IMG/VR virus record: IMGVR_UViG_3300037475_000122
Span: 1-64,000 of that record
Source: a virus
Strand: one strand, 5' to 3'
DNA: 64,000 bases
Below the pieces are notes generated by a model. That model saw only the letters and a program-made list of their open reading frames with translations. It did no database searches and had not been told where the DNA came from. The first letter of the stretch is position 1, and each line of letters begins with the position of its first letter. The translations under genes and the position numbers were made by a program. Of the stretch, positions 1 to 36,719 are shown in pieces.

Positions 1-330
1 AAGTCATTGGGGACGGTGAACGGATTGTGTTTCGCGGCCCTCGGTGACACCGTGCCCGAACGCAAGCCGCAATCAGCAGGCGGAGCACACACGGCCGCAG
101 AGTTGCACGCGTCGCTTATTGCCGCGCTCAATGGACCCGGAGCAAAGGCGAAGCCATCGGACGCGCTCATTGTGGAAGCATCGCAGGTTATCGACTCAGC
201 ACCCACAACCCCTAGTGGTCAGCAGGTTTCAGGCCACACAAGCAGTGGCACACAACCTGTTGTGGTGAGCACGAATCAGGCCACAAGTGAGCGAAAAGCT
301 CTCCCGCCCGTTCCGCTAGCGCAAAGTTGA
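1..330 (+). CDS. 5'-truncated ORF, possibly the C-terminal part of a terminase small subunit
   Basis: Frame is open from base 1 (KSLGTVNG...). Low-complexity C-terminus followed by a G-tract non-coding region. The TerS assignment is positional inference only. Confidence 0.35.
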   Translation, partial: KSLGTVNGLCFAALGDTVPERKPQSAGGAHTAAELHASLIAALNGPGAKAKPSDALIVEASQVIDSAPTTPSGQQVSGHTSSGTQPVVVSTNQATSERKALPPVPLAQS

Positions 331-637
331 GCAGGTGTAGCTTTTTGACCACATTGTTGGTCCTTATACAGCCTGTAGCCTTTCGACCATGCAGTCTGCA
401 AGCCTCAATGACTCGACGCCTCGCGGTCCTCATGTCTGAATCGCCCGAATTGAGAACAGGCCGGTCTCAGCGTCCCAAATTTGGACATCGACCGGGGGGC
501 TCTGGGGCCGGGGGAGGCCGCTCAGACATCCTCTCCGCGTGTAAAAAAACCGAATCGGAAGTCCGGTCCTACGTTTAAACGCATATACGGAGAATACCTT
601 ACTTACTTTTGAACGAAAGAGGCAACCTTGGTGTCCA

Positions 638-910
638 ATGACAACCATCCGCCTCACATGGCAACCTAACCCCGCGTCTGAACTCGTTACCTCCTATGAA
701 GTATGGGCGGCAAAGAGCGGCGCGGAATACCTGCAAATCGGCACCTCTGAACGCGAGAGCTTTGACTTTGTGAGCCCTGAACCGGCTCACTACAGTTTTG
801 CTCTCAAGGCCGCGAACTTCGCAGGCGTCAGCGGACTCGGCGAGGGGACATGCAGTCCCAACGTCCCGACCCCGCCTGCCGCACCGAAGATTGAATACGT
901 GCAGAGCTAA
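638..910 (+). CDS. Small fibronectin type III-like domain protein
   Basis: IRLTWQPN...VTSYEVW...YSFALKAANFAGVS matches the FN3 pattern (W, Y, Y-x-F-x-x-x-A-x-N-x-x-G-x-S). Confidence 0.7.
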   Translation: MTTIRLTWQPNPASELVTSYEVWAAKSGAEYLQIGTSERESFDFVSPEPAHYSFALKAANFAGVSGLGEGTCSPNVPTPPAAPKIEYVQS

Positions 911-942
911 GCATCACGGCCCGGGACCGAGGATTTTACCCC

Positions 943-970
943 TTGACCCCGGGCCTTTTTCTACAACCTT
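943..970 (+). promoter_or_regulatory. Putative phage late promoter TTGAC-N17-AACCTT, leaderless
   Basis: TTGAC 943-947, AACCTT 965-970, ATG at 976. Confidence 0.7.
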
Positions 971-975
971 ACCGC

Positions 976-1272
976 ATGGCTTTTCGCGAACTCCGGTCCC
1001 GTCAGGCGGATTCTGACAACGACTCACTCCGCAAAATCGTTGACTCTCTCGCGATTGCTCTCGGGCAACGCGGCCATGACCGCTACAGCGGCGCGACCGC
1101 TGCGACTGCCGGGGAATGGGCCATCCTCCACGCCATCGCCGCGTCAGTGGTCACAGTGATTCGCGACGGCACAAGCGAAGCCATCTCCCTCGGTGCGGGT
1201 GACCGCATTTACGGGCAGATTACGAGCGTGACCGTCACGTCCGGCGATGTCGAATTGTATCGGGTCAACTGA
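976..1272 (+). CDS. Hypothetical virion-associated protein
   Basis: ATG 5 nt after the AACCTT box; beta-rich C-terminus; stop overlaps the next start (TGATG). Confidence 0.7.
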   Translation: MAFRELRSRQADSDNDSLRKIVDSLAIALGQRGHDRYSGATAATAGEWAILHAIAASVVTVIRDGTSEAISLGAGDRIYGQITSVTVTSGDVELYRVN

Positions 1273-1415
1273 TGCAACTTCAGCTTCAAACTTTGATTAC
1301 AGTGCCCAGCGCCACGACTGGCGGGGTCGTTCCTCCACTCCCAACGAACAACCTGCTCACCGAGGGCAGTGACAATTTTGTAACGGAGGGCGGAGACAAT
1401 TTCGTAACGGAATAA
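1272..1415 (+). CDS. 47-aa protein with LLTEGSDNFVTEGGDNFVTE motif, putative tail-fibre adaptor peptide (not in ORF track)
   Basis: Translated by hand; coupled to the upstream stop; lies directly before a fibre gene. Confidence 0.6.
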   Translation: MQLQLQTLITVPSATTGGVVPPLPTNNLLTEGSDNFVTEGGDNFVTE

Positions 1416-1419
1416 CGCT

Positions 1420-3009
1420 ATGGCCGACGTCAAATTTTCAGGTCTCCCCGTCGCGGCTTCTCTCGCTGCGGCTGATTTGCTTGCCATCGCGCAGGGCGGG
1501 ACGAGCAAGTCCATCACGGGCACGGTCCTCTTGACGTTCGTCGGCACCACGTATTTTCCAAAGGCGGGCGGTGACATCGCGGGGAACACGACCATCGCGA
1601 CGAACAAGATTCTCCTGAACGCAGACGGGACGGCAGTCTTCACCGGCTTCGTCACGATGCCGTTCCTCCTGAATAATTTTCCGGATGCAGGCACCAACAC
1701 CGCCCCGTCCGTTGCGGAATTTTCTCACTCGCTCACGGCTGGCACCGCTGCGGCTAACTTCGGCGCGAGCATCGACTTGACGGCTGACTCCACGACGACT
1801 ACACGCCAAAACGTCGCGCGACTCACTGCCCGATGGACAGACGCCACCCATGCGACACGCACCGGCCAAATCCGTTTGTTCGCTGCGGTCTCCGGCACAC
1901 TGACCGAACTGTTGCGGCTGGACGCCACGAGCGTTTTGATTCCCGCCGGTTCACTCCTCTTCACCGACAACACGTTTGACATCGGTGCCACGGGTGCGAC
2001 CCGTCCCCGGACGATTTACGTCGGCACCTCGGCCATCATCCAGAAAGGTGGGATTGGCACCACGCAGACGGACGCGCTGCAACTCATCAACTCGACTGCG
2101 GCCATCAACGGCACCCAGCAATTCTCGACGGCGCTTCGATTGACGGGTCAGGGCTTCGGCACTACGGCTGGCACGAGTCAGGCAACCGACTGGCGCATCT
2201 ATGTCGTGCCGGTTCAGGGGACCACTGCGACGAGCGTCCTGCAATTTGATTCGAGCCTGAACGGCGCTGCGTTTGCGACGAAGGTTACCATCACGAGCAA
2301 CGGCGTTCTCACGGCGGTGGGACTTGTGTCCACGGGCAACGTCACGGCGGCTGCGGCGTCCGCGTTTATTTTTTCCGGCAGCACGAACATCAAGGCCCCG
2401 AGCGACGGCGTTTTGGAATTGCTCGATACGGCCGGTTCGAGTTTCAACCGATTGCAGTTCGGTGGGACCACGTCAAGCTTCCCGGCGATTCAGCGGTCCT
2501 CGGCCGGATTGATTTGTCGGTTGGCCGACGACAGCGCGGACACCACGATTCGCGCCACGGCGTTCAACATCGGTGCTAATCCGCTGAACCTCGCGCTCTC
2601 CGTTTACGCGGCCGGGACCGTTTACACGTTGACGGCCACGAACGCGAAAATTGATTTCGGCACGACTGACCCGAGCCTGACCATCACGGCCCCGGGGACC
2701 TACGCGTTGCACGGCTTCGCCAAGGTGCAGGTCAACGGCGCGACATTCGCCGCGAACCAAACGGTCACGGTGCTCATTCGCCGGACGAACAACACGCCCG
2801 CGAACATCACGAACTCCGGCACGACTTGGTTCCTGCCCACCATGACGACTCTGACTCAGACCATCGCGCTGATTCAGATGAAGGAAATTTTTTACACCAC
2901 GGCGAACAGCGACGACGTCCTCGAACTTTGGGCGGACGTCAGCGCGTTGCCCAGCGCGGGCACGGTCACCATCGAAGCCGCATCGCTCACCGTCATTCGC
3001 GTCGCATAA
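1420..3009 (+). CDS. Tail fibre / receptor-binding protein
   Basis: 529 aa, rich in Thr/Ala/Gly with beta-strand character; N-terminal MADVKFSGLP..LAIAQGGTSKSIT attachment-type motif; C-terminal beta-sandwich. Confidence 0.75.
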   Translation: MADVKFSGLPVAASLAAADLLAIAQGGTSKSITGTVLLTFVGTTYFPKAGGDIAGNTTIATNKILLNADGTAVFTGFVTMPFLLNNFPDAGTNTAPSVAEFSHSLTAGTAAANFGASIDLTADSTTTTRQNVARLTARWTDATHATRTGQIRLFAAVSGTLTELLRLDATSVLIPAGSLLFTDNTFDIGATGATRPRTIYVGTSAIIQKGGIGTTQTDALQLINSTAAINGTQQFSTALRLTGQGFGTTAGTSQATDWRIYVVPVQGTTATSVLQFDSSLNGAAFATKVTITSNGVLTAVGLVSTGNVTAAAASAFIFSGSTNIKAPSDGVLELLDTAGSSFNRLQFGGTTSSFPAIQRSSAGLICRLADDSADTTIRATAFNIGANPLNLALSVYAAGTVYTLTATNAKIDFGTTDPSLTITAPGTYALHGFAKVQVNGATFAANQTVTVLIRRTNNTPANITNSGTTWFLPTMTTLTQTIALIQMKEIFYTTANSDDVLELWADVSALPSAGTVTIEAASLTVIRVA

Positions 3010-12467: not shown

Positions 12468-13823
12468 ATGCCTACTGAAACCGCTCCGAAAACCGAATCC
12501 ACTCCGCCGCCCGACAATCAGGGCCTTCCCGCCGCTGTCCCCGGCGAGGAGTTGCGCGGCAACACCGCCGAAGAGATTCAGACCACCTCATCGGCGCTCG
12601 ACGAACTTTTGAAAGCTTCAGGAGCAACTGAAGAGGGCGAAGGCGACCCGCAGCCGACGGCTGAGGAAATCGCAGCGGAAGAGAAGGCGGCGAAAGAGGC
12701 CGAAGAGAAAGCGGCCAAGGAAGCGGCCGAGAAAGCCGAGAAGGAGAAAGCGGCCCCGGCCCCCGACAAGACCGCCGAGGAAAAGGCGAAGGAAAAGCCC
12801 GCCCCGGTGACCGACGAATTCGACAAGGTCGAACTGCCGCCCTACACGAAGCCCAAATCGGTTGAGGCATTCGCCACGGTGAAGCAAATGGCCCGCGAGC
12901 GCGTCGCCAGCCTCGAACGCGAGAAGGCCGAGATTCAGGCCAAGCTGGAAGCCGCCGAGAAGGCGAAAGCCGAAGCCCCGGCCGGACTCCCCGCCGAGGC
13001 CGAGAAGGAGTTGAAAGAACTCCGCGAGTTCCGCGCGAAATTCGACGTCGAAGCCGACCCGAGTTTCAAAACCTACGACTCTTCCATCAAGGAGAACGAA
13101 GGGCTCATCATCGCCAAGATGAAAGCGGCCGGAGTGGACGAAGAGTCCATTAAGCAGATTCAGGCCATCGGGATTTCGCAGGTGGAATGGGAATCCGTTT
13201 TGCCCAAACTGCCGCCGACGCTGAAGCGGTTCATCGAAGGCAAGCTCTACGAGAACGACAACCTCTCGGAAAAGAAAAAGCTCGCCATCGAGACCGCGAA
13301 GAGCAACGCCTCGGAATTCGTCCGCACCCGGCAGGAGGAACTTTACAAAGGCACCGAAGCCCGGCAGCAAACCACGATGCAGGAGTTCAACGCGCTTTTG
13401 CCGAACATGGACTGGCTGAAGAAAGAGACGATTGACCCGAAGGCCCCGGCGGAAGCCAAGGCGAAAGCCGAAGCGACCAACGCGCTCATCGACAAAGTCA
13501 ACGCGGATTTGCAGGAAGCCATCAACGACGACTCGCCCCGCATGCGCGCGATTCTCATCGGCGGCTTCGCGAAGCTCATGCGCGTTCAAGCGGATTTTGA
13601 AGCGACGAAGGCCGCGCACAAGGCCGAAGTCGAGAAGCTGAACTCCACAATCAAGGAGAAGGACGAGTTCATCGCCCGCATCAAAAAGTCGTCCACGTCC
13701 CGGCTGAGTTCTGCGGCCCCCGGCGTCGGAGAATCCAAGACCAAAACCAAGGTTGATTTGAACGAGGACGGCGCATCGGCTCTTGACCGCTTGCACCGCG
13801 AACTCGTCGCCTCGCAGTCATGA
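12468..13823 (+). CDS. Capsid scaffolding protein (putative)
   Basis: E/K/A-rich coiled coil with acidic, Pro-rich N-terminus, upstream of the capsid gene. Confidence 0.7.
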   Translation: MPTETAPKTESTPPPDNQGLPAAVPGEELRGNTAEEIQTTSSALDELLKASGATEEGEGDPQPTAEEIAAEEKAAKEAEEKAAKEAAEKAEKEKAAPAPDKTAEEKAKEKPAPVTDEFDKVELPPYTKPKSVEAFATVKQMARERVASLEREKAEIQAKLEAAEKAKAEAPAGLPAEAEKELKELREFRAKFDVEADPSFKTYDSSIKENEGLIIAKMKAAGVDEESIKQIQAIGISQVEWESVLPKLPPTLKRFIEGKLYENDNLSEKKKLAIETAKSNASEFVRTRQEELYKGTEARQQTTMQEFNALLPNMDWLKKETIDPKAPAEAKAKAEATNALIDKVNADLQEAINDDSPRMRAILIGGFAKLMRVQADFEATKAAHKAEVEKLNSTIKEKDEFIARIKKSSTSRLSSAAPGVGESKTKTKVDLNEDGASALDRLHRELVASQS

Positions 13824-26181: not shown

Positions 26182-27186
26182 ATGGGTGTCGTAACTGCAA
26201 TTGCTGCCGGTGCTGTCGCCGCAGGGGCCATCGCCTCGGCCGTCGTCAAGAAGAACGCCGCCGACAAGGCCGCGAAGATTCAGAAGAAGGCCATCGACCA
26301 GCAACAGAAAATTCTTCAGAATAAGCTGGACCCCGACGCGCTGAACAAGCTCGCGCAGACGGCCGACACCGAGCGCGCGAAGAACCGTATTGCGCTTCAG
26401 CAGACGATTGACCCGGAACTCGCACAACTCCGCACCGCTGGGAAGAAAGCGTTGCTTGAGCAGGCGAGCATCCCCGAAGAGCAGAAGCAGTCTTCGCAGT
26501 TGGCGAGTGCGCTGTTCAACGAGACGAAGACCGAAGACCCGCGCATGGCGGCGTTGAAGGACTCCATCATCAATGCGGCTCAGAACGAAATCAACGCGGG
26601 CGCAACTCTGCCCCCGGAATTTCAAGCCGAACTCGTTCGCTCCGGGCTCAACACGGGCTCTCAGTCCGGCATCGGCATCACGAAGAATTCAATCGGCGGC
26701 AGTGTCGCCCGGGCTCTCGGACTCGGCGGAGTTCAACTCCAATTCCAGCGCGAGCAGGCCGCGCAGAACCTCGCCGCCACGGGCCAGAGCCTCATCAACG
26801 CGCGAACGAACATTCTCTCCTCCGTGTTCCCGAAACTTCGCGACTTGGAAAACGAACGCCGGGTCGAGGCCGCACAGAATTTTCAACTTGCCGACCAAGC
26901 CCTTCCCGAAAGCGGCTTGTCCGGTCAGGACGTGGTCAACCTCAAGGTCGCACAGCAGAAGGGCATCGCGAACGCTCTCGGCGCGAAGGCTCAGGTGCGC
27001 GCGGGTCAGAAGATTGCGGCCGGTCAGGAAACCGGGGCCATCATCGGGGCCAGCACGAGCGCCATTGCGGGCGGACTCGGCGGCGGCTACGGAAACATCA
27101 TGGGCAGTCTTTTCAGCAAAAAGCCCGGCGTGGACACGGGCGGCGGGTCCAGCTTGAGCCAAGGTCAATTCCCCGGAGAAGGATAA
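26182..27186 (+). CDS. Internal virion / DNA ejection protein
   Basis: Gly/Ala-rich hydrophobic N-terminus and Q/A helical body, directly after the GNAT as in many podoviruses. Confidence 0.7.
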   Translation: MGVVTAIAAGAVAAGAIASAVVKKNAADKAAKIQKKAIDQQQKILQNKLDPDALNKLAQTADTERAKNRIALQQTIDPELAQLRTAGKKALLEQASIPEEQKQSSQLASALFNETKTEDPRMAALKDSIINAAQNEINAGATLPPEFQAELVRSGLNTGSQSGIGITKNSIGGSVARALGLGGVQLQFQREQAAQNLAATGQSLINARTNILSSVFPKLRDLENERRVEAAQNFQLADQALPESGLSGQDVVNLKVAQQKGIANALGAKAQVRAGQKIAAGQETGAIIGASTSAIAGGLGGGYGNIMGSLFSKKPGVDTGGGSSLSQGQFPGEG

Positions 27187-27683: not shown

Positions 27684-29270
27684 ATGCCCGGCATCGCCTC
27701 AGACCGTTCTCCCGGAATTCAGATTGGACCCATCGCGTCCATCGGAAGCGACATCACTCCGACGCCTGCCGTCGGCGACATGATGGATGCTTTCCGTTCA
27801 GGCTTCATCACCGTTGACGACCTGAAGAAACGCGTGAAGCAGGAGGCGTTGGACACCGACGCCATGAAGACCCAACTTCAGGCCGGGGACATTCAACGCA
27901 AGCTCGCGCCCGGCGCGGCGGAGAACGCACTCGCGCAGCAATCGCTCACGGCCGACCAAATCCGGGCCGCTCAGGCGGTTCTCCCCGGTGCCACGAAGTT
28001 GACTCTCGGCGGACAGACGCTCGCCCAACAGGAGCAGGACCGTCAGGCCGCGCTCACGAGCGACGACGTCACCATTCATCAGAAGGCCCTTGAGGACGCG
28101 ACGAAACGACAATACATCGACACGTTCGGCCACGAGCCGCCCAAGTCGATTGCGATTCCCAACCCCAAGCCGGTGGACCCGTTCGACGTGTGGCTCGAAA
28201 AGGAGCACGGTGCGGATTTGCAGAAGCGAATCAACGAATTCGACCCCGGCGTCCCGGACCCGAAGGAACTCGAAGCGACCATCACGGAGAAGGTCAACAA
28301 TTTCAAGAGTGGGTATCCGCTGAATTCCCGCGAGGACAACATCGAGCGCGCGAAGTTCGCGAACCAACTCGAAGAGCAGGCGAAGAACGTCCCCAACCCG
28401 GACGCCCTCCGCGCTCAGTTCGCCAATCAGGCCGCGCAGGAACTCCGCGAGAACCCGGCCATCCGGACTCAATACGAAACCTACAAGCTCGAACAGTCGA
28501 ACGCGAAAGACAAGGTCGTTCTCGGCACGCCGGAGCATACGGAAATCATGCGCCAGCGGATTCAGGACGCGCAGGACAAGGCCGCGCTCCGAGCCGCGAA
28601 AATCACCGCGCTTCCCAAAGTTTTGGAAGAGCAGGCGACGCTCCCCGGCAAGCTGGCTCAGAAGGAAGTGGAGAACAAAGGCAAAGCGGCAGGCGATGTC
28701 TTGCTGGAACTCCACAAGAGCGAGTCGTTGAAACGTTTCGAGCCTCAGTTCGAGGCGTTCGAGAAGGTGGACTCCATCCGCAACAGCGGCCGACCGCCCA
28801 CAAACGCCGACGACATCGCGGTTCTTTACGAGTTCGTCAAGCTGCTCGACCCCACGTCGGCCGTCCGCGAAGGTGAAGCCAAGCTCGCGCAGTCCACGGT
28901 CCCCGGGGTGAAGGCGATGTATAACAAGGTCCTCGGCCTTTTCACTGACCACAATAAAATCATGGACCCGCAGGCGCGCGAGTCGATGTTTCAGACGATG
29001 GACACCCTCCGGGACGGCGCAATCAAAACCGTCGCTCCCGAAATCAAGCGCATCTCGAACATCGCCATCGACCGGGGAGTTCCGCTCGACCAAGTTTTTT
29101 CCGGACCCTATCAGGCCATCCTCACGAAGAACGGCCGAGGTCCCGGCGCGGCTCCGGCTGGCAACCTCCCGCCCCCGGGCGGCTCCAAACGGGTCATCCC
29201 GTCGGAAGGCCCATATAAGGGCAAGACGTTGGAGTGGGACGGCGCACGGTGGACTCTTATCGGCCCTTGA
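27684..29270 (+). CDS. Internal virion / ejection protein
   Basis: Helical; D.AVLYEFVKLLDP.SAVREGE motif. Confidence 0.7.
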   Translation: MPGIASDRSPGIQIGPIASIGSDITPTPAVGDMMDAFRSGFITVDDLKKRVKQEALDTDAMKTQLQAGDIQRKLAPGAAENALAQQSLTADQIRAAQAVLPGATKLTLGGQTLAQQEQDRQAALTSDDVTIHQKALEDATKRQYIDTFGHEPPKSIAIPNPKPVDPFDVWLEKEHGADLQKRINEFDPGVPDPKELEATITEKVNNFKSGYPLNSREDNIERAKFANQLEEQAKNVPNPDALRAQFANQAAQELRENPAIRTQYETYKLEQSNAKDKVVLGTPEHTEIMRQRIQDAQDKAALRAAKITALPKVLEEQATLPGKLAQKEVENKGKAAGDVLLELHKSESLKRFEPQFEAFEKVDSIRNSGRPPTNADDIAVLYEFVKLLDPTSAVREGEAKLAQSTVPGVKAMYNKVLGLFTDHNKIMDPQARESMFQTMDTLRDGAIKTVAPEIKRISNIAIDRGVPLDQVFSGPYQAILTKNGRGPGAAPAGNLPPPGGSKRVIPSEGPYKGKTLEWDGARWTLIGP

Positions 29271-29300: not shown

Positions 29301-32300
29301 ATGCCCGTTCCGATGACGCCCGTGCCGGTTGATTTCGACCCGACGACCACTCCGTTTACACCTGTCCTCGACGCGGCGTTGTCCGGGGCTTCTCCCGTCA
29401 ATCCGGCTGAGCCGTCCAAAACCCCGGTCCTTGACCAAGCTCTCACCCCCGCGCCCATTGCGACGCCGACCACTCCGGCGTCCGGCCCCACCGTCGTTGA
29501 CTTCGACCCCACGACCACGCCGTTTACACCCGCCCCCGAGCCGAAGAAGGCCGTCATTTTCGACCCGACCAAGCAGGCACACGACAAAGTCTTTTCCGTC
29601 GCGGATTTCAAGGCCCTCCCGCTCGACCAACTCGACAACGAGAAGCAATTTGAGCCGACAGACTTCGGATTCCAACACGAGGACGAACTTAACGCGGACC
29701 CCGAAGCGAAAGCGAAGTTGCTTGAGCTTTACAAGCTCCGCAATCAGCCGTTCCATCAGACCCGCAAGTTTCTCGCGCAGCCTGCGGGCGACATCGCCAA
29801 GCAAACGCTGCTCGCGGGAGTTCATGCGCCCGGCAAACTCATCGGCGGCGCGTGGCATGTCGGCGGCGACATCGTCAAGGGACTTTGGAACGCGGCGCTC
29901 AACGCCAGCGGGGCCATCGGTGCAACCGGGCTCGCCGGACTTCAGGCCGTCACGGGTGCGAGTCCGCAGAAGGTCAACGAAACTCTCGGCATGGCGGGAA
30001 GCATGGGCAGCGAACTTTTGTCCGGGTTTGAGGCTCAGTCCACGTCTGAGGCCGGGCTTGGCCGTCGCAGCTTGCGGGCCGTCGGCGAAGGCGTCGCGGC
30101 GCTCGACCCAACGGGCGCGGTCAAGGACATCACCGGGCTGAAATCTTTTTCGGAATTGTCCCCGGAAGAATTGAAGGCGCGCTTTGACAGCGACGTGCAG
30201 GAAAAACGCGCCGTTCAGGACGCCGTCAAGGGGACCGGCGAAATGGTTCGCGCAATCGCGGGCAGCGAAGAGGAATTGAAGCAGGCCGGAATCACCATCG
30301 ACACCGCCAAGGTTGAGAAGCTGATGCCCGCAACGAGTCTCTTGAATTTCATCCCCCTCGGCGAAGGTCTCGCAGTGGGCGCGGTCGGAAAAGTCGGCGG
30401 GCGGTTCGTCGTCGAGAAGGTCGCGCAGGCAACCACACCGCAGCAAGCCAGTCTTTTCATCCGGGCGGTCAATCAGGGCGCGGAACTGGCAGGCAAAGCA
30501 GCGAAAGCGGGCGGCGAAGCGTTGGAGACGGCCGGGGGCAAGCTGCGCGAGAACGTTTTCAAACCGCTTCACAACCTCGGCGACGTTTCGGCGGTCCTCG
30601 CCGGTTCCGGCGGGCACCTCGGCGTCGGCGCGGGCATCGCTGCGGTTACGAAACTCACCCCCAAGGCGCTCGAACTTACCGGCCGGGCAGTGCAAAAGGC
30701 TGCTCCGTTTGTCGCAACGGGCGCGCGTATCGCTGCGGACTCGGCTATTGAAGCGGGCAAAGGCTACGCTCACGGTCTGCTCTACACTCTCCCGTTCATG
30801 GTTGGCGCGACGCCGACGGAGCAGGAAGGCTTGCTGAATGTCGCGGGTCTCGCGGGCGCGGTGCGCGGCGGCGTTCGTGCAACCGGACTCACCGGCCAAG
30901 TCGTCGGCTTCAAAGCTCAGGAAGCCCTTGCGAAGAAAATTTTCGAGCACGTCGAGCAGAAAGAACCGCCAGCGGTCCCGGACTACGGCACCGATATTTA
31001 TCTCGACGCTCAGTCGCGGGTGAATGCGGCGAATCTCCCGAAGGCTCAGAGCAATCTCCTCGGCTGGGCGAAGCACATGTTCAAAGACTCCGGCGTTGAG
31101 TGGCACCCGGTCACCGACGCTCAGATGATTCAGCAGACCGGCGGGCAGAGTGGGCGCGGGTTTGCGGTCAAGCTGGGTCAGACTATCGCCCCCGACGGCT
31201 CGACGAAACCTCTCGTCCGGATTTTTCTGAACGGCGACGTCGAAGCATTGCCTCACGAAATGCTCCACGCTCTCGGCAACATCGACGCGCCCGGCTATAG
31301 CGATTTCGTCAAGACGGTGAACGATTCGCTCACGACCCGCGAGCGCCAAACGTTCGAGCAGATTTACAACACGGTCCAGAACGGCGGGCTTCCCGAGGCC
31401 CAATGGAAAACCCGGCTCTCTCCGGAAAAGGTCAACGAGGAAGTCGCCGCTGAAATCTTTTCTCGCGTCATCCTCGGTCAGGATTTGTCCGGAGTCAAGC
31501 CCACGCTCGCGCGCAAGGCCGCGCTGTTTACGTCGAACCTTCTCGAAAAAATGGGAATCCCGCTGGGCGACGTGAACGTCATGCAGGCGAAGGATTTTAA
31601 TCCCAAGGCCGACCGCCCCGGATTTTCAACCCTCGGCGTTCGTCCGACTGCCGACGCGACCATCATCAGCCAGAACTTCATCAAGGGACTTTTGAACCAC
31701 CTTGAGAACAACGGCGACCTACTCCCGAATTTTCAACGTCCCTCGCTCTTGAAAGGCGGCGCTGTGACCGGCGGCACGTCTCTCATCAAGCCTCGCCCCC
31801 GCACTCCTGCCCCCACGCCCGGGGCACCCGCTGCTCCGGCCGCTCCTGCAAATCCTGCAACCCCTGCGGCTCCCGCCACTCCCTCGGCCGGTCCTTCAAC
31901 TCCTACGACGCCGACGCCGCTCCCCACGGGGCCGACTCCGTCGCCCAAGCCTCGCAACATCCGCACCACGGAAGCAAAGCAAAACGATTTTGCGGCTCAG
32001 CGCGCCGAAGTCACGAACGTTGACAAAGCGACCGACGCGGCAGCGAAATCGGCCGACGCGAATACGGTCAAGCACGTCGCGGACATCTCCAAAGTTTTGG
32101 AGTCCGGCAAAGGCGTTGTCGAACTCGAATATCTGTCGGTCAAGGACACCGGCAATGCGAACGCTCCGACGACTCGCACTCCCCGGCGCGATGCCCAAGA
32201 GGCTGCATACATCGCCGAGGGAATGGGCGCGGCTCCGGCCGACGTCCGGGACCTCGCGCAGAAGGTTACCGTGCCCGTCCGCTGGGAAGTTCAGGGCGGG

Positions 32301-35300
32301 AAGCCGCAACTTATCGCGATGTCTCTCGACAAGGTCGTCGCCAACGTCGCGCAGACGGTCAAGGACGTTGTCGCGAGCAAAGTCGAAGGCAAAATCCCCT
32401 ACGAGATTAAGGACGGCGCGCTGACGGATGCTGCGTGGCATGATGTCGTGTCGGACCTTCAGGACTACGCGGAGAATCAGTCGAACGGCTTCCGAGGCGA
32501 CGGTCAGAAACTCACGCGCCCGACTGAAGACATCGGCGCTTCCATCCCGGCCGAGAATCCGGCATACAGCCCCCGCATTCTTTCGGAGCAGAAGGCGAAT
32601 TTTCTGAACTACATTCAGGGCTTGAATCCGCCGCTGACCGCGCGCGAAGTCAAAGGCGTGACCCCCGGCAACGTGAAGGGCCAAATCATTGCCGAAGTCA
32701 ACAAGCGGACGCCGGAGAAGCCCGCCGTCATCCGTCCGAAAGACATCCAGAAGCAGACATTCAAGAGCGGCCGGGAGATTCGCGAAACGAATCCGCTCCG
32801 CAACGAACTCGCGGCGGCTGGCGTGGACCCTCGGAAACTCATCGAGGTCACCGAACGCATCGACCCGTCGCTCATCGCGAAAGTTACACCGCGCCCCGAC
32901 CTGAATTTTAAAGCGCCGGTCACCGACACCATTCGCGGCGGCTTCCTCCCCGGCGGCAAGGAATTTTTCAAGCACAACACGGTCGATGAAATCGGCGAGG
33001 CCGTCTCGAAGGCGTCCCCGGAAGAGTGGCAGAAGCTTTCGAGCGAGATTGGAAGCCTTACAACGGGCGCGTATCAACTTGGCGTCAACCTCAAGGACGT
33101 CGCAGACGTGGCAAAACTTCGCGCGCTCGAAACGAAATTCACTGAGGCTTATCAGGCGGCGAAAGGCGAGAAGGATTTCGACGCGATGATGCTGGCGGCG
33201 ACGAAAAAACAATTCGTCACCGAGGCGCTTGAGACGGCCACGGGAATGAGCCCGGGCAAACGCGAAACCATCGCGCGCCAACTCGGCCCCGACTGGCAAC
33301 CGCCTTTTCCTGAAGCCGCCAAGCCCGAGGGTCAGCTTCTCCCGAAGACTGAATCCGCGCAGAAGCTTTCAACCGAAGGTTTTGATTTCCGCATCTCCGG
33401 CCAGCCCGGCGTCCGCGCCGTCACGGTTTTGAAGGACGGCGTTGCGGTCGGCGAGTTCCAATCGGCACAGCGCGCTCCCGGCACGGCTGAGATTTCAAAC
33501 GTGCTGTTGAAGAAAGAGGCGCGCGGCACGGGGGCGGCGGAAGCGGCCTATCGCGAACTCCTCGCGCAGTTGCAGGCCGACGGCGTCACCAAGGTTGAAG
33601 GCACCGTTGTCGCTCCGCAACCGCTGGCGATTCGCCGGAAAATCTTTGGCGGCTTCGACAAGCTCGAACTGAACGGCGAGCCGGTCAGCATCGACGACGC
33701 GCTCCACGCCGCGAACGAAATCGCGACCTCCCGCGCGCGGGACATCACGAACATCGAGGCGGTGAACGAAATTCCCGTTGACAAGCAATTTCTCCCCGGC
33801 GGCAAGGACGAACTCAACGGGCTCGCGTTCAAGGAATTTTTCTCGAAGGTCTCGAAGGGCGAGTTCGGCAAGTCGAAAGTTCCGTGGGTCCCGGTCACCA
33901 ACGTCGAGAAGCAAAAGGATTTTCTCCAAGCCGTGCAAGAGCACTCGGGGAACTTCGATGAGCATATCGCGAAGTCGATTCCGACCTACCGGGAGACGCA
34001 GCTTCGCAAGGGCACCGCAATCATCGCGCTCGCGGGCGACGGAGACTTGGCCGTGCTGGACATCGGCGGCAGCGAAGGCTCATGGGACAAGGCGGTCACT
34101 CAATTGTCCGGCGGCAAGGTCACGACGGTTACGGTTGACCCGAATCCGGCGATGTCGGACTTTTTTCACGAGAAGAGCAAGGTCCCCGGCGCTCAGCACG
34201 TCACGGCTGCATTTCGCGAGGGCTTCGAGGACGAAGGCAAGCACATCCCGGCGTTTGACTCGACGAAGAAATTCGACGTCGTCAACGAGTCGATGACGTT
34301 CCAGTTCATCAACCCCGACCGCGCGGGCCAAGTTGCAGAGGTGAAGCGACTGCTCGCCCCTGACGGCTTGTTCATCACTGACGAGAAGCTGCGCGACCCG
34401 AAGTGGGCGGAGAACGAGGCGAAGAAAGACAAGGATTTCAAGTCGGTCTATTTCTCGGACGAAGAGTTGAAGGCGAAGGATAAAGTCGTCGGCTTCCAAC
34501 AGGCGAAGCAGGAGACCAAGACCGTGGGCATGATTGACAACATGGTCACGCCGGAACAATACGAACAGATTCTCCGGGACCATTTCAAATTTGTCTCTCA
34601 GTATTGGGACAGCGGCAACTTCAAAGGCTACGTCGCGTCTGACGACCTCTTGAAGCTTCAGAAATTTCTCCGCGAAGTCGGCGACACGTCCTCCGAGTTC
34701 AGCACTCAGAAGACTCCGCGCGCCGTTCCGAACGTCCGCGAGCAGGGCGAGAACTCGCTCCTCACTCAGCAACGGCTCCTAGCGGGCCAACTGCTCCCGA
34801 AACAACGCGAGCCGCTGAGCCCGGAAGACGTCCAGCGGAAAGCCATCAAGTCTCCCGCTGTTCGACTCGACAACGGCCGTGTCATCGAAGGACCGATTCA
34901 CGCGATGGCGATTGCCAAGGCTCTCGACGAGGCCCCGAACTACGAAGGCAAATTCAAGAGCGGATTTACAACCAACGAAGGGGAATTTCTCGACAGCAAA
35001 AAGGCTCTCCTCCGTGCCGAGGACATCAAGCAAGTTCAGAAGGGCAAAGGGCTCGCGCAGTCGTTGGGCTTCCTTGAATCGAAGGAGTTCGAGAAGAACC
35101 GAAACTTCCTCCCCGGCTCGACGGGCTGGATTCTCCCCAACCAGAAATTTGTCCCGCTGGCGCAGTCGTATCACGAACGCTACCTCGCGGACGAGTCCAA
35201 GGCGCTCAACAAAAAGTTCGGCACCAAGTTCTCGGCGACGGCGGACATCAATGAGCGGTTGAAAGCCTTGAACGACGGCTTCGTCCGCATCCGTGGCGGA

Positions 35301-36719
35301 TTCAACGGCGGCGGGTCGATGAACATCGAGTTGAACGCCAAGTTTTTCACGGGCAAGACCCGGAAGGCCGTCGAGAATTTCCTTGAGGACCACGCCGACG
35401 ACATCGACAATCTGAACATTTCCCTTTTGAACGACAAGGGACAAATCGTGGACTCGACGAGCGCCAAGGTGTTTGAGTTTGACGGGCCGGAACGGGTGAA
35501 CGCCCTGCTCGAAGCCGTTGACGGATTGCGCGCCCGGCCCGGCCGGACTCACGGCGGTCAACTGCTCCCCGGCGGAGACGAGATTTTGCCGGGCCTGAAC
35601 ATCCCCAGCGAAGAACGCGCGCAGCAATTGCGCGTGAAGGCTCGCGTGGCGAAGTCGAAGGAGAAATTCCCCGAGGCCATCAAGCTTCAGTATGCCAAGG
35701 ACGACGCGGGCAACTTCGTTCTCGGCGAGGACGGCAAGCCGAAGCCTCAGACCGTGGAGTATGGCTTCATGAACACGCCGCTCGCGCGCGAGGCCGCAAA
35801 GAACCTCAAGGGCGAAGACCGGATTCGTGCAGTCGAGCAGGCATTGGGGCGGAAACTCGTCACCGAGGCGAAGGACGCGCTCAAACGACCGGACCTTCAG
35901 GCCGGGGCGAAGTGGTATTCGACCGCACGCACGCGGCTCAAAGGTTTGTTCGGCGAGGACACCAAGTTTTTCACGGAACTTCTCGGGGCCACGAGCGCCC
36001 GGACTCCGGTCGAAACGAATTATCGCTTCGCGCTGGACGCTTACAACCAATTCAAGCAAGGAAAGTTTGACGACCTCATCCGGAAATATCGGGAAGGCAA
36101 ATCGAATTGGGACGCAGGCAACATCAAGGATTTTCTGGCCGCAACCGGAAACCAAAACCCGACGCGCGGGCAGTATCTCGATTGGTGGGTCCAGACAAAC
36201 GACATCAGCCCCGTGCAATCGAACGGGAAGAAGTTCGGCGCGAACTCCCGGCAAGTTCTCAAGGTGCTCGACGGCTCATGGGCCGAGGAAATCGGCGGGC
36301 CGAAGACCCCCAACTTCGCGGGGAACCTCGCGGGCACCACGTTCGAGGCAACGATTGACGTTTGGGCCGCGCGTATGTTGCACCGGCTCGCCAACGAGGG
36401 CAATACGAAGCCGTGGCGCATTCTGGCCGAGAACGAAACCGGCGTCGTCGATGAGGACTTCGCAATCGGACAGGCCGCTTATCGTCACGCCGCAAAGGAA
36501 CTCGGCATGAAGCCGGACGCGCTGCAAGCCGTCTTGTGGTTCGCCGAAAAAGACTATTGGGAAAAGAAAGGTTGGACACGCGGGGCCGGGGCGGAGAAGT
36601 CCGACTTCAACGTGCTGCTCAAAGAGACCGAGCCCGCAAGCGGCGGCACGATGAAAATGAAGTCGGCACAGAACGACCTTTTTTCCGTCAAATCCTTAGA
36701 GATTAAAAAACGCAAATGA
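29301..36719 (+). CDS. Giant (2472 aa) polyvalent internal virion protein
   Basis: HEMLH zincin motif; GNAT (EARGTGAA); class I SAM-MTase (VLDIGGSEG); C-terminal WY...ATS...KTPNF...TIDVW...QAVLW domain. Confidence 0.8.
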   Translation: MPVPMTPVPVDFDPTTTPFTPVLDAALSGASPVNPAEPSKTPVLDQALTPAPIATPTTPASGPTVVDFDPTTTPFTPAPEPKKAVIFDPTKQAHDKVFSVADFKALPLDQLDNEKQFEPTDFGFQHEDELNADPEAKAKLLELYKLRNQPFHQTRKFLAQPAGDIAKQTLLAGVHAPGKLIGGAWHVGGDIVKGLWNAALNASGAIGATGLAGLQAVTGASPQKVNETLGMAGSMGSELLSGFEAQSTSEAGLGRRSLRAVGEGVAALDPTGAVKDITGLKSFSELSPEELKARFDSDVQEKRAVQDAVKGTGEMVRAIAGSEEELKQAGITIDTAKVEKLMPATSLLNFIPLGEGLAVGAVGKVGGRFVVEKVAQATTPQQASLFIRAVNQGAELAGKAAKAGGEALETAGGKLRENVFKPLHNLGDVSAVLAGSGGHLGVGAGIAAVTKLTPKALELTGRAVQKAAPFVATGARIAADSAIEAGKGYAHGLLYTLPFMVGATPTEQEGLLNVAGLAGAVRGGVRATGLTGQVVGFKAQEALAKKIFEHVEQKEPPAVPDYGTDIYLDAQSRVNAANLPKAQSNLLGWAKHMFKDSGVEWHPVTDAQMIQQTGGQSGRGFAVKLGQTIAPDGSTKPLVRIFLNGDVEALPHEMLHALGNIDAPGYSDFVKTVNDSLTTRERQTFEQIYNTVQNGGLPEAQWKTRLSPEKVNEEVAAEIFSRVILGQDLSGVKPTLARKAALFTSNLLEKMGIPLGDVNVMQAKDFNPKADRPGFSTLGVRPTADATIISQNFIKGLLNHLENNGDLLPNFQRPSLLKGGAVTGGTSLIKPRPRTPAPTPGAPAAPAAPANPATPAAPATPSAGPSTPTTPTPLPTGPTPSPKPRNIRTTEAKQNDFAAQRAEVTNVDKATDAAAKSADANTVKHVADISKVLESGKGVVELEYLSVKDTGNANAPTTRTPRRDAQEAAYIAEGMGAAPADVRDLAQKVTVPVRWEVQGGKPQLIAMSLDKVVANVAQTVKDVVASKVEGKIPYEIKDGALTDAAWHDVVSDLQDYAENQSNGFRGDGQKLTRPTEDIGASIPAENPAYSPRILSEQKANFLNYIQGLNPPLTAREVKGVTPGNVKGQIIAEVNKRTPEKPAVIRPKDIQKQTFKSGREIRETNPLRNELAAAGVDPRKLIEVTERIDPSLIAKVTPRPDLNFKAPVTDTIRGGFLPGGKEFFKHNTVDEIGEAVSKASPEEWQKLSSEIGSLTTGAYQLGVNLKDVADVAKLRALETKFTEAYQAAKGEKDFDAMMLAATKKQFVTEALETATGMSPGKRETIARQLGPDWQPPFPEAAKPEGQLLPKTESAQKLSTEGFDFRISGQPGVRAVTVLKDGVAVGEFQSAQRAPGTAEISNVLLKKEARGTGAAEAAYRELLAQLQADGVTKVEGTVVAPQPLAIRRKIFGGFDKLELNGEPVSIDDALHAANEIATSRARDITNIEAVNEIPVDKQFLPGGKDELNGLAFKEFFSKVSKGEFGKSKVPWVPVTNVEKQKDFLQAVQEHSGNFDEHIAKSIPTYRETQLRKGTAIIALAGDGDLAVLDIGGSEGSWDKAVTQLSGGKVTTVTVDPNPAMSDFFHEKSKVPGAQHVTAAFREGFEDEGKHIPAFDSTKKFDVVNESMTFQFINPDRAGQVAEVKRLLAPDGLFITDEKLRDPKWAENEAKKDKDFKSVYFSDEELKAKDKVVGFQQAKQETKTVGMIDNMVTPEQYEQILRDHFKFVSQYWDSGNFKGYVASDDLLKLQKFLREVGDTSSEFSTQKTPRAVPNVREQGENSLLTQQRLLAGQLLPKQREPLSPEDVQRKAIKSPAVRLDNGRVIEGPIHAMAIAKALDEAPNYEGKFKSGFTTNEGEFLDSKKALLRAEDIKQVQKGKGLAQSLGFLESKEFEKNRNFLPGSTGWILPNQKFVPLAQSYHERYLADESKALNKKFGTKFSATADINERLKALNDGFVRIRGGFNGGGSMNIELNAKFFTGKTRKAVENFLEDHADDIDNLNISLLNDKGQIVDSTSAKVFEFDGPERVNALLEAVDGLRARPGRTHGGQLLPGGDEILPGLNIPSEERAQQLRVKARVAKSKEKFPEAIKLQYAKDDAGNFVLGEDGKPKPQTVEYGFMNTPLAREAAKNLKGEDRIRAVEQALGRKLVTEAKDALKRPDLQAGAKWYSTARTRLKGLFGEDTKFFTELLGATSARTPVETNYRFALDAYNQFKQGKFDDLIRKYREGKSNWDAGNIKDFLAATGNQNPTRGQYLDWWVQTNDISPVQSNGKKFGANSRQVLKVLDGSWAEEIGGPKTPNFAGNLAGTTFEATIDVWAARMLHRLANEGNTKPWRILAENETGVVDEDFAIGQAAYRHAAKELGMKPDALQAVLWFAEKDYWEKKGWTRGAGAEKSDFNVLLKETEPASGGTMKMKSAQNDLFSVKSLEIKKRK

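Follow-up and report, generated by a model that had tools for sequence, protein, structure and literature searches.

A lineage-specific tripeptide at the module junctions of a giant phage polyvalent protein: a candidate self-processing code

The stretch of DNA analysed here, called the window throughout, comprises 64,000 nucleotides (positions 1 to 64,000 of IMG/VR record IMGVR_UViG_3300037475_000122) drawn from the 74,142-bp contig of an uncultured phage. Its + strand carries a block of structural genes, with the large terminase, collagen-like tail fibres and a minor coat protein, and this block is closed by a giant open reading frame (ORF), the largest late gene of the phage, the product of which is the subject of this report (Table 1). 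The same gene layout is found in 45 IMG/VR contigs of about 70-75 kb; no relative of the phage at the DNA or terminase level was found among 50,697 deposited phage genomes. With its 2472 residues, a zincin-like domain, a GNAT acetyltransferase, an S-adenosylmethionine (SAM) methyltransferase, DUF7178 and three unassigned modules, all encoded by a phage beside structural and late genes, the product has the make-up of a polyvalent protein, and the frame in which an earlier note on this DNA had placed it is apt. Polyvalent proteins were defined by Iyer et al. (2017; PMC5512222), who described the zincin-like metallopeptidase (MPTase) as a hub domain, proposed autoproteolytic domain release and drew the analogy with RNA-virus polyproteins. 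They are thought to be a main route that phages use to supply the cell with ready-made counter-defence enzymes, and their cutting has been a conjecture since 2017. Here, we describe a conserved carrier followed by exchangeable modules, each preceded by a three-residue tag that takes lineage-private versions, and we weigh whether the carrier might cut the protein at these tags.

The tripeptide [FL]LP occurs seven times in the giant protein, and all seven occurrences are motifs that the earlier note had picked out; the ORF translation confirms the position of each. Composition alone would give 1.68 occurrences, and seven were reached in two of 2000 shuffles of the protein, which, together with the family-wide enrichment described below, rules out a chance origin. 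The density is 2.83 per 1000 residues versus 0.71 in the other proteins of the genome, where none of the [FL]LP tripeptides stands in a comparable G-x-[FL]LP-G/K context. Six sites, with the Phe or Leu at residues 1215, 1346, 1497, 1831, 1936 and 2088, are well-supported junctions of the form x-x-[F/L]-L-P, set within a flexible polar linker, one ahead of each module. Information content at the tag is confined to three positions, and the flanks are polar or small. The remaining site, at residue 807, is doubtful as a junction and stands apart from the other six: its only alignment is with G-x-[ILV]-L-P-E of the closest HExxH-bearing relatives, and it is absent elsewhere, never has Phe and stays unswitched in relative P0009 despite the change to FKP in that protein. 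The earlier picture of seven similar motifs at domain borders holds for the six and is doubtful for residue 807.

Two AlphaFold2 (AF2) models built on family alignments place the tags relative to the folded domains. In the model of residues 540-1230 (mean predicted local-distance difference test score, pLDDT, of 76.5), a zincin-like fold is followed by Pro-rich disorder beginning around the first motif and then by a very confidently predicted domain at residues 890-1215, the confidence of which collapses exactly at GGFLP. In the model of residues 1200-2200 (mean pLDDT of 79.2), all six motifs lie in segments with pLDDT below 50 that are coil according to DSSP (model residues 1-19, 141-147, 296-305, 631-640, 673-738 and 881-898). 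Residues with pLDDT below 50 make up 16.4% of this model, and six out of six motifs would fall among them by chance with a probability of about 2e-5. None of the six is buried in a folded domain, and the arrangement is that of a polyprotein, with a short site repeated between units in accessible linkers.

A word-indexed search returned 66 homologues of 1376-4001 residues, with a mosaic content of ART-PolyVal, GNAT, methyltransferase, radical SAM, SLT and DUF7178 domains. The closer homologues contain 4-9 FLP each, and up to 11 tags with LLP, versus about 0.4-0.6 FLP expected; for the short ones of about 1380 residues (P0034, P0040, P0041 and P0047), truncation at a contig end and truly split genes are both possible. 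BLAST alignments of the giant protein to its relatives, about 70 in number, begin or end at residues 1213-1216, 1343-1348, 1497-1500, about 1809-1849, 1936-1941 and 2088-2100, and on the partner side they stop 0-3 residues from the partner's own motif. Taking all pairs together, 30.2% of 11,966 internal alignment ends lie within three residues of a motif, versus 3.1% (maximum 4.3%) under random placement, with starts peaking on Phe and ends on Pro. Module order varies among the relatives; in P0003, the methyltransferase precedes the helical and GNAT modules. Judging from these alignments, module shuffling at the tag is real, and the suggestion in the earlier note that homologues swap modules at the motif is borne out.

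Modules also occur outside this setting. A module of about 100 residues is fused after DUF7178 in P0037 (tag EIQFQP) and P0051 (tag DLQFSP), and a homologous stand-alone gene of about 100 residues lies at L018:12521-12820 on the - strand and lacks the tag. This stand-alone gene begins with an Ala/Gly-rich stretch. Among cultured phages, DNA and protein searches gave as their only match the methyltransferase module of Maribacter phage Panino (L055, PP540027.1 28228-33717, CDS0069), a cysteine-free multidomain protein of 1829 residues beside virion structural genes. Annotated as 'tRNA methyltransferase', it shares only the CmoA-like module with the family and has neither the zincin nor a repeated tripeptide.

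The tag varies between lineages in a concerted manner. The first of the six junctions, R-G-G-F-L-P here, acts as an anchor: it closes the conserved carrier domain, occupies a homologous column in every relative, and the tripeptide found there predicts the version repeated downstream in the same protein. Most relatives have FLP; LLP and FLP are mixed in the giant protein and in P0002, FKP occurs five times in P0009, and FSV three to five times in P0019, P0025 and several IMG/VR contigs. Further versions are FMP (4-5 copies), FQP (6-8), FQA (7), YLP (3-4) and FLT or YLT (2-3). Around one and the same methyltransferase module, the flanking tags are FLP/LLP here, FMP in P0030 and FQP in P0049. A carrier-domain tree of 74 rows shows no fewer than 11 changes of the anchor version, with FKP (P0009) and FSP (seven copies in P0028) nested among FLP relatives. 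Such a concerted change of all sites in a protein with its lineage points to one sequence-specific reader.

An exhaustive search with a profile of the zincin block yielded 393 cluster representatives, in nearly all of which the domain occupies residues about 450-750 of a giant protein. Of the representatives that were new, 108 were kept that have the anchor and at least 300 residues after it; their anchor reads A/G-G-F-x-P, and its tripeptide recurs 263 times downstream versus 17.6 expected. The tag in a protein's own variant occurs 229 times past the anchor versus 13.4 expected, a 17-fold enrichment, and once in the carriers versus 11.1 expected (80,202 residues), a depletion that lacks phylogenetic independence. 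The virion-module ORFs that flank the gene in 16 relatives have the tag at background, with nine occurrences versus 11.5 expected (74,346 residues). As the tag is at background in the other proteins of this phage as well as in those of the 16 relatives, its interpretation as a general head-maturation motif was not supported.

Several smaller features were seen around the tags. Tandem double tags 8-14 residues apart, often a repeated R-[AGS]-G-[FL]-L-P unit, occur in P0008 (1114/1128), P0014 (1180/1188), P0003 (1831/1843) and P0016 (2184/2192); they may be redundant sites or may release a mini-peptide. A different tripeptide, TPE, is present at 6-9 copies per protein versus about 0.7 expected in many homologues (e.g. 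P0071, P0074, P0093, P0141 and P0142); being located inside domains, for instance within YTPEQ of the zincin block, it does not qualify as a junction and is possibly a recurrent helix cap. We also considered LLPKTE as a sortase LPXTG signal and dropped this reading, since there is a single instance and the match of the zincin profile to a sortase (E value of 0.065) covers the sheet region only.

The carrier, residues 1-1214, contains two conserved domains. In the zincin block, the HEMLH motif and the downstream EEVAAE, which had been placed N-terminal to all motifs, are confirmed, and the domain around them was modelled as zincin-like, with the HExxH on a helix and a downstream Glu, as in zincins of the gluzincin type. 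From their conservation, E714 and E718 are candidates for the third metal ligand. The best structural matches of the block are anthrax lethal factor (Z score of 6.1 over 151 residues), PPEP-2 (Z score of 5.7, 144/185 residues) and PPEP-3 (Z score of 5.5), and the top Foldseek matches are lethal factor and PPEP-1, among them the PPEP-1 variants E143A/Y178F. The block matches no Pfam model, those for polyvalent MPTases included. The zincin assignment is plausible but not secure.

Many FLP-rich relatives lack HExxH, which had looked like a break in the link between zincin and tag; alignment dissolved it, as these proteins have HDAGH at the same column and so retain the carboxylate. This clade (P0012, P0016-P0018, P0020-P0024, P0029, P0032, P0033, P0036, P0038 and P0046; loci L006-L018) keeps 5-8 FLP tags, and three members inside it read HE[PST]GH. 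In the role of general base, Asp and Glu seem to be interchangeable.

The second carrier domain, at residues 890-1212, shows the highest conservation anywhere in the family, has many invariant residues and carries a nearly invariant S-L-D-K. In part, it resembles WYL/Sm-like barrels, the best match being PafBC (6sj9_B, Z score of 8.8 over 90 residues), followed by BrxR, CapW and DriD (range of Z scores 6.5-8.8 over 80-90 residues). This domain could itself be the tag reader. The N-terminal part of the carrier includes a Gly/Ala-rich region with two weakly hydrophobic segments (residues 341-365 and 429-450). At the extreme N-terminus (window positions 29301-29600, residues 1-100), the Pro/Thr-rich sequence VDFDPTTTPFTP is duplicated, at residues 10-21 and 66-77.

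Beyond the carrier, Pfam places the recognizable enzymes where they had been described in the earlier note: the GNAT between the third and fourth motifs, the methyltransferase between the fourth and fifth and the DUF7178 domain after the seventh. The match of module B to PF00583 is marginal (21.0 bits versus a cut-off of 20.7, residues 1366-1444), and AF2 gives a folded alpha/beta domain. Module C matches PF08241 (26.8 bits versus a cut-off of 21.2, residues 1564-1703) and phrog_4752 (E value of 9.9e-14), and its Foldseek matches are CysG (9fcy, 1.3e-9) and CmoA (4iwn, 7e-9), with TM scores to the target of 0.66-0.78. The DUF7178 module (domain at residues 2197-2415) is the commonest last module in the family. 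The carrier domain at residues 890-1212 and modules A, D and E gave nothing usable in Pfam, NCBIfam and PDB sequence searches. The ESM Atlas returned unnamed clusters only, in one of which LPD23 is present on 18% of members.

Table 1. Features of the giant gene and its product; positions are those of the window.
Feature	Position	Residues	Strand	Remarks
Giant gene	29301..36719		+	Open, 2472 aa, cysteine-free; closes the structural block of the + strand
N-terminal carrier part	29301..30953	1-551	+	Pro/Thr-rich, then Gly/Ala-rich region; no family match
Zincin-like domain	30954..31550	552-750	+	Three-stranded sheet, HEMLH helix, later Glu helix; AF2 pLDDT 73-92
HEMLH	31254..31268	652-656	+	Both His invariant; residue after the first His always Glu/Asp
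Tyr689	31365..31367	689	+	Invariant; 33 residues past the second His (H656)
EEVAAE	31437..31454	713-718	+	E714 and E718 nearly invariant
Disordered Pro-rich linker	31560..31967	754-889	+	pLDDT below 50
Site 1, GDLLPN	31713..31730	805-810	+	Disordered stretch; doubtful junction
Most conserved carrier domain	31968..32936	890-1212	+	pLDDT above 90; many invariant columns
Anchor junction, GGFLPGG	32937..32957	1213-1219	+	Homologous column in all relatives; ends the carrier
Module A	32952..33329	1218-1343	+	All-helical; no family
Junction, GQLLPK	33330..33347	1344-1349	+	BLAST breaks, AF2
Module B, GNAT acetyltransferase fold	33345..33782	1349-1494	+	Pfam PF00583, E 4.1e-4; AF2
Junction, KQFLPGG	33783..33803	1495-1501	+	BLAST breaks, AF2
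Module C, class I SAM methyltransferase, CmoA/CysG-like	33798..34784	1500-1828	+	Pfam, PHROG, Foldseek
Junction, GQLLPK	34785..34802	1829-1834	+	BLAST breaks, AF2
Module D	34800..35099	1834-1933	+	Poorly modelled; no family
Junction, RNFLPGS	35100..35120	1934-1940	+	BLAST breaks, AF2
Module E	35115..35555	1939-2085	+	Alpha/beta, pLDDT 80-97; no family
Junction, GQLLPGG	35556..35576	2086-2092	+	BLAST breaks, AF2
C-terminal module with DUF7178	35571..36716	2091-2472	+	Pfam PF23802, E 3.7e-14, residues 2197-2415

We favour, with a probability of roughly 0.55, the reading that the six tags are self-processing sites for the carrier zincin. The protein would consist of the conserved carrier (residues 1-1214) and six cargo modules, namely a helical module, the GNAT, the CmoA-like methyltransferase, two unassigned modules and the DUF7178 module; the zincin would recognize the tag, cut at or next to it and free the modules as separate proteins. 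The six supported sites would yield one 1214-residue carrier and six cargo pieces instead of the roughly eight effectors put forward in the earlier note, the interpretation of which survives in part: the linkers, the shuffling and the N-terminal zincin-like domain stand, whereas the number of effectors does not and the site at residue 807 is doubtful. Zincins in general select a hydrophobic P1' residue. The scissile bond would most likely be just before the Phe or Leu, with the aromatic residue as P1' and Pro as P3', judging from how zincins and Pro-Pro endopeptidases (PPEPs) bind their substrates; our confidence in this placement is low. Peptides such as TIRGGFLPGGKE would be candidate substrates of the carrier. 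The protease and the tag would co-evolve, each lineage having its private version, and any module between two tags would be released, such that modules could be freely swapped or added. As to timing, a cut after ejection into the cell is favoured. What we infer is that the zincin is catalytic and reads the tag, where and when the bond is cut, and that the giant protein is packaged into the virion; packaging is indirectly suggested by the position of the gene and the near-total lack of cysteine.

More tentatively, the zincin and the tag may form a private, co-evolving protease-substrate code for plug-and-play delivery, in which a switch of the code in one step would shield the cargo and the protease from co-infecting relatives. 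On such a platform, any gene inserted between two tags would be carried into the host and released. If cleavage at the tags is confirmed, the tag would also be an annotation key with which hundreds of giant phage proteins could be divided into their cargo modules, the majority of which have no known function. The family offers exact candidate scissile positions, a candidate protease of about 200 residues and a natural specificity panel (L, M, Q, K, S and A at the middle tag position across about 400 sequence clusters); therefore, cleavage, specificity and co-evolution are testable without culturing the phage.

Several points weigh against self-processing by the zincin. The structural Z scores of 5.5-6.1 are below the level that the tool calls clear, the Foldseek E values are 0.6-1.4, and neither the single sequence nor a profile of the block found a match in Pfam, NCBIfam or the PDB sequences. 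A large FLP-rich clade has HDAGH, and zincins are usually weakened when the general-base Glu is replaced by Asp. The zincin and the domain at residues 890-1212 always co-occur, and therefore co-occurrence cannot tell which of them reads the tag; moreover, the co-variation of zincin and tag is confounded by shared descent, and among the private changes of the FKP lineage P0009 there is no clear candidate for a compensating change in the pocket. The AF2 alignment came partly from fragments that end at the junctions, which may itself lower the confidence there, although it also held full-length rows that span the junctions. Finally, no cleavage product has been observed for any member, all of which come from uncultured phages or metagenomes, and zincin domains are also carried by N4 vRNAP, ArdC and TraC1, which travel uncleaved (PMC5512222).

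These uncleaved zincin carriers also speak for an alternative in which the tags are not cut and instead serve as docking motifs, for a chaperone, the portal or ejection channel or the conserved domain of the carrier, or as a hinge or proline switch in an intact protein built like beads on a string. As exposed hydrophobic triplets in polar linkers the tags do look like typical binding motifs. Nevertheless, we consider this unlikely, and docking less likely than cleavage. Covalently joined modules do not need a tag each, and polyprotein cut sites have just this pattern of one tag ahead of each module; the depletion of the tag in the carriers fits a destructive consequence of its presence, and the stand-alone copy of the P0037/P0051 module does without it. 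The Pro-less variants FSV and FLT argue against a proline switch, and a general host chaperone would not drive private variants. A recombination by-product, in which the motif would be a microhomology or crossover site of module-shuffling DNA recombination and have no peptide function, could draw on the exchange of modules exactly at the motif, on the use of CTC for the tag Leu at seven of seven sites in the giant gene, and on CTCCCCGGC, which the gene contains five times, with four copies at residues 1215, 1497, 1936 and 2088. However, CTC makes up 48% of the Leu codons of the gene, so that the p value for seven of seven is only about 0.006. Eight relatives encode the tag with a variety of synonymous codons (TTG, CTG, CTA, CTT and TTA; CCC/CCG/CCT/CCA); hence it is the peptide, rather than a DNA site, that is under selection. 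Conservation extends to the reading frame and to the polar surroundings of the tag in the peptide. We regard such a by-product as hardly credible.

Cleavage in trans, by an unrecognized head-maturation protease of the phage or by a host protease, could draw on the weak fold match of the carrier zincin and on the HDxxH of one clade. T4 gp21 trims internal proteins, and both T4 and phiKZ have head proteases that act on packaged internal proteins at short motifs; as most head and structural ORFs of the present phage lack a family match, a divergent protease could hide among them. However, the motifs of head proteases normally recur across several head proteins, and the tag does not rise above background in flanking proteins, those of capsid and portal included, either in this genome or in 16 relatives. 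No head protease, nor any other protease family, was recognized among the phage proteins with PHROGs and Pfam. A general maturation protease is unlikely because of this background level and because no head protease was recognized, and a host protease would leave private variants such as FKP and FSP, nested within FLP relatives, unexplained. Taken together, cleavage in trans seems quite improbable to us. An embedded cysteine protease was excluded by composition, since the giant-protein family has 13 Cys in 162,447 residues, mostly in radical-SAM modules.

Self-processing by the carrier zincin would have partial precedents. Lethal factor and PPEP-1/2/3, of family M34, are the best structural matches of the zincin block and resemble it in the H-E-x-x-H, a conserved Tyr about 33 residues past the second His and a downstream Glu. 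The PPEPs cut Pro-containing linker motifs (VNP/PVP and PLP/PVP, the slash marking the cut) and prefer Pro at P3'. On the other hand, the structural scores are weak and there is no match at the sequence level, the spacing from Tyr to Glu is longer and variable here, one clade has HDxxH, and the carrier zincin is embedded in its own presumed substrate, whereas M34 enzymes are secreted. In the MARTX toxins of Vibrio, a cysteine protease domain within the protein cuts after Leu in inter-domain linkers once a eukaryotic cofactor has activated it. The proposed arrangement here is similar, with a giant carrier, a variable train of effectors, an embedded protease, short inter-domain sites and a repertoire that is mosaic between strains; in contrast, MARTX is a bacterial toxin and the phage proteins are practically cysteine-free, and we know of no lineage-private site code for MARTX. 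The internal proteins of T4 and the inner-body proteins of phiKZ are packed in the head, ejected with the DNA and processed at short motifs, as may be the case here. However, their protease acts in trans and its motif is present in many head proteins, whereas here the tag is confined to one protein and at background in the others, and no prohead protease was recognized, with most head ORFs matching nothing.

Among polyvalent proteins, a close parallel is gp47 of the Stx phage phi24B (bioRxiv 10.64898/2026.04.10.717836), a protein of about 2800 residues with a metallopeptidase domain. Proteomics detected it in virions, the cryo-EM map did not show it, and its proposed role is that of an ejection protein. 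It differs in its LPD5/1/38 and MuF-C families and in that no junction motif was described; its authors suggest that the peptidase degrades the cell wall. With the polyvalent proteins of Iyer et al. (2017; PMC5512222), the giant protein shares its size and multidomain build, its place in a late, structural gene block and the combination of a zincin-like domain with a GNAT and a methyltransferase, to which its relatives add ART-PolyVal, radical SAM and lysozyme-like modules. In their account, the word 'linker' is absent and no motif for cleavage is given; what is different here is the split into carrier and cargo, the universal anchor, the three-residue junction code and its lineage-private variants. 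A description of the junction motif was not found in the searched literature. Release by an embedded zincin is thus a known concept, to which the present family adds a concrete site code that can evolve.

Among 185,579 species genomes scanned, a single contig of a metagenome-assembled genome (MAG) matched, and the scan therefore gives no prophage form and no clue to the host. This contig (L056, JABFSS010000103.1) is 26.5 kb long, was binned in a Candidatus Peribacteraceae MAG and is probably a phage contig rather than a prophage. The absence of cysteine extends to some neighbours of the giant gene: the two ORFs just upstream (26182-27186, 334 residues, and 27684-29270, 528 residues) and a 451-residue ORF of the head module (12468-13823) are also cysteine-free, whereas the other phage proteins have 0.2-3% Cys. 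This set may represent the proteins that leave the capsid via the tail and cross the periplasm.

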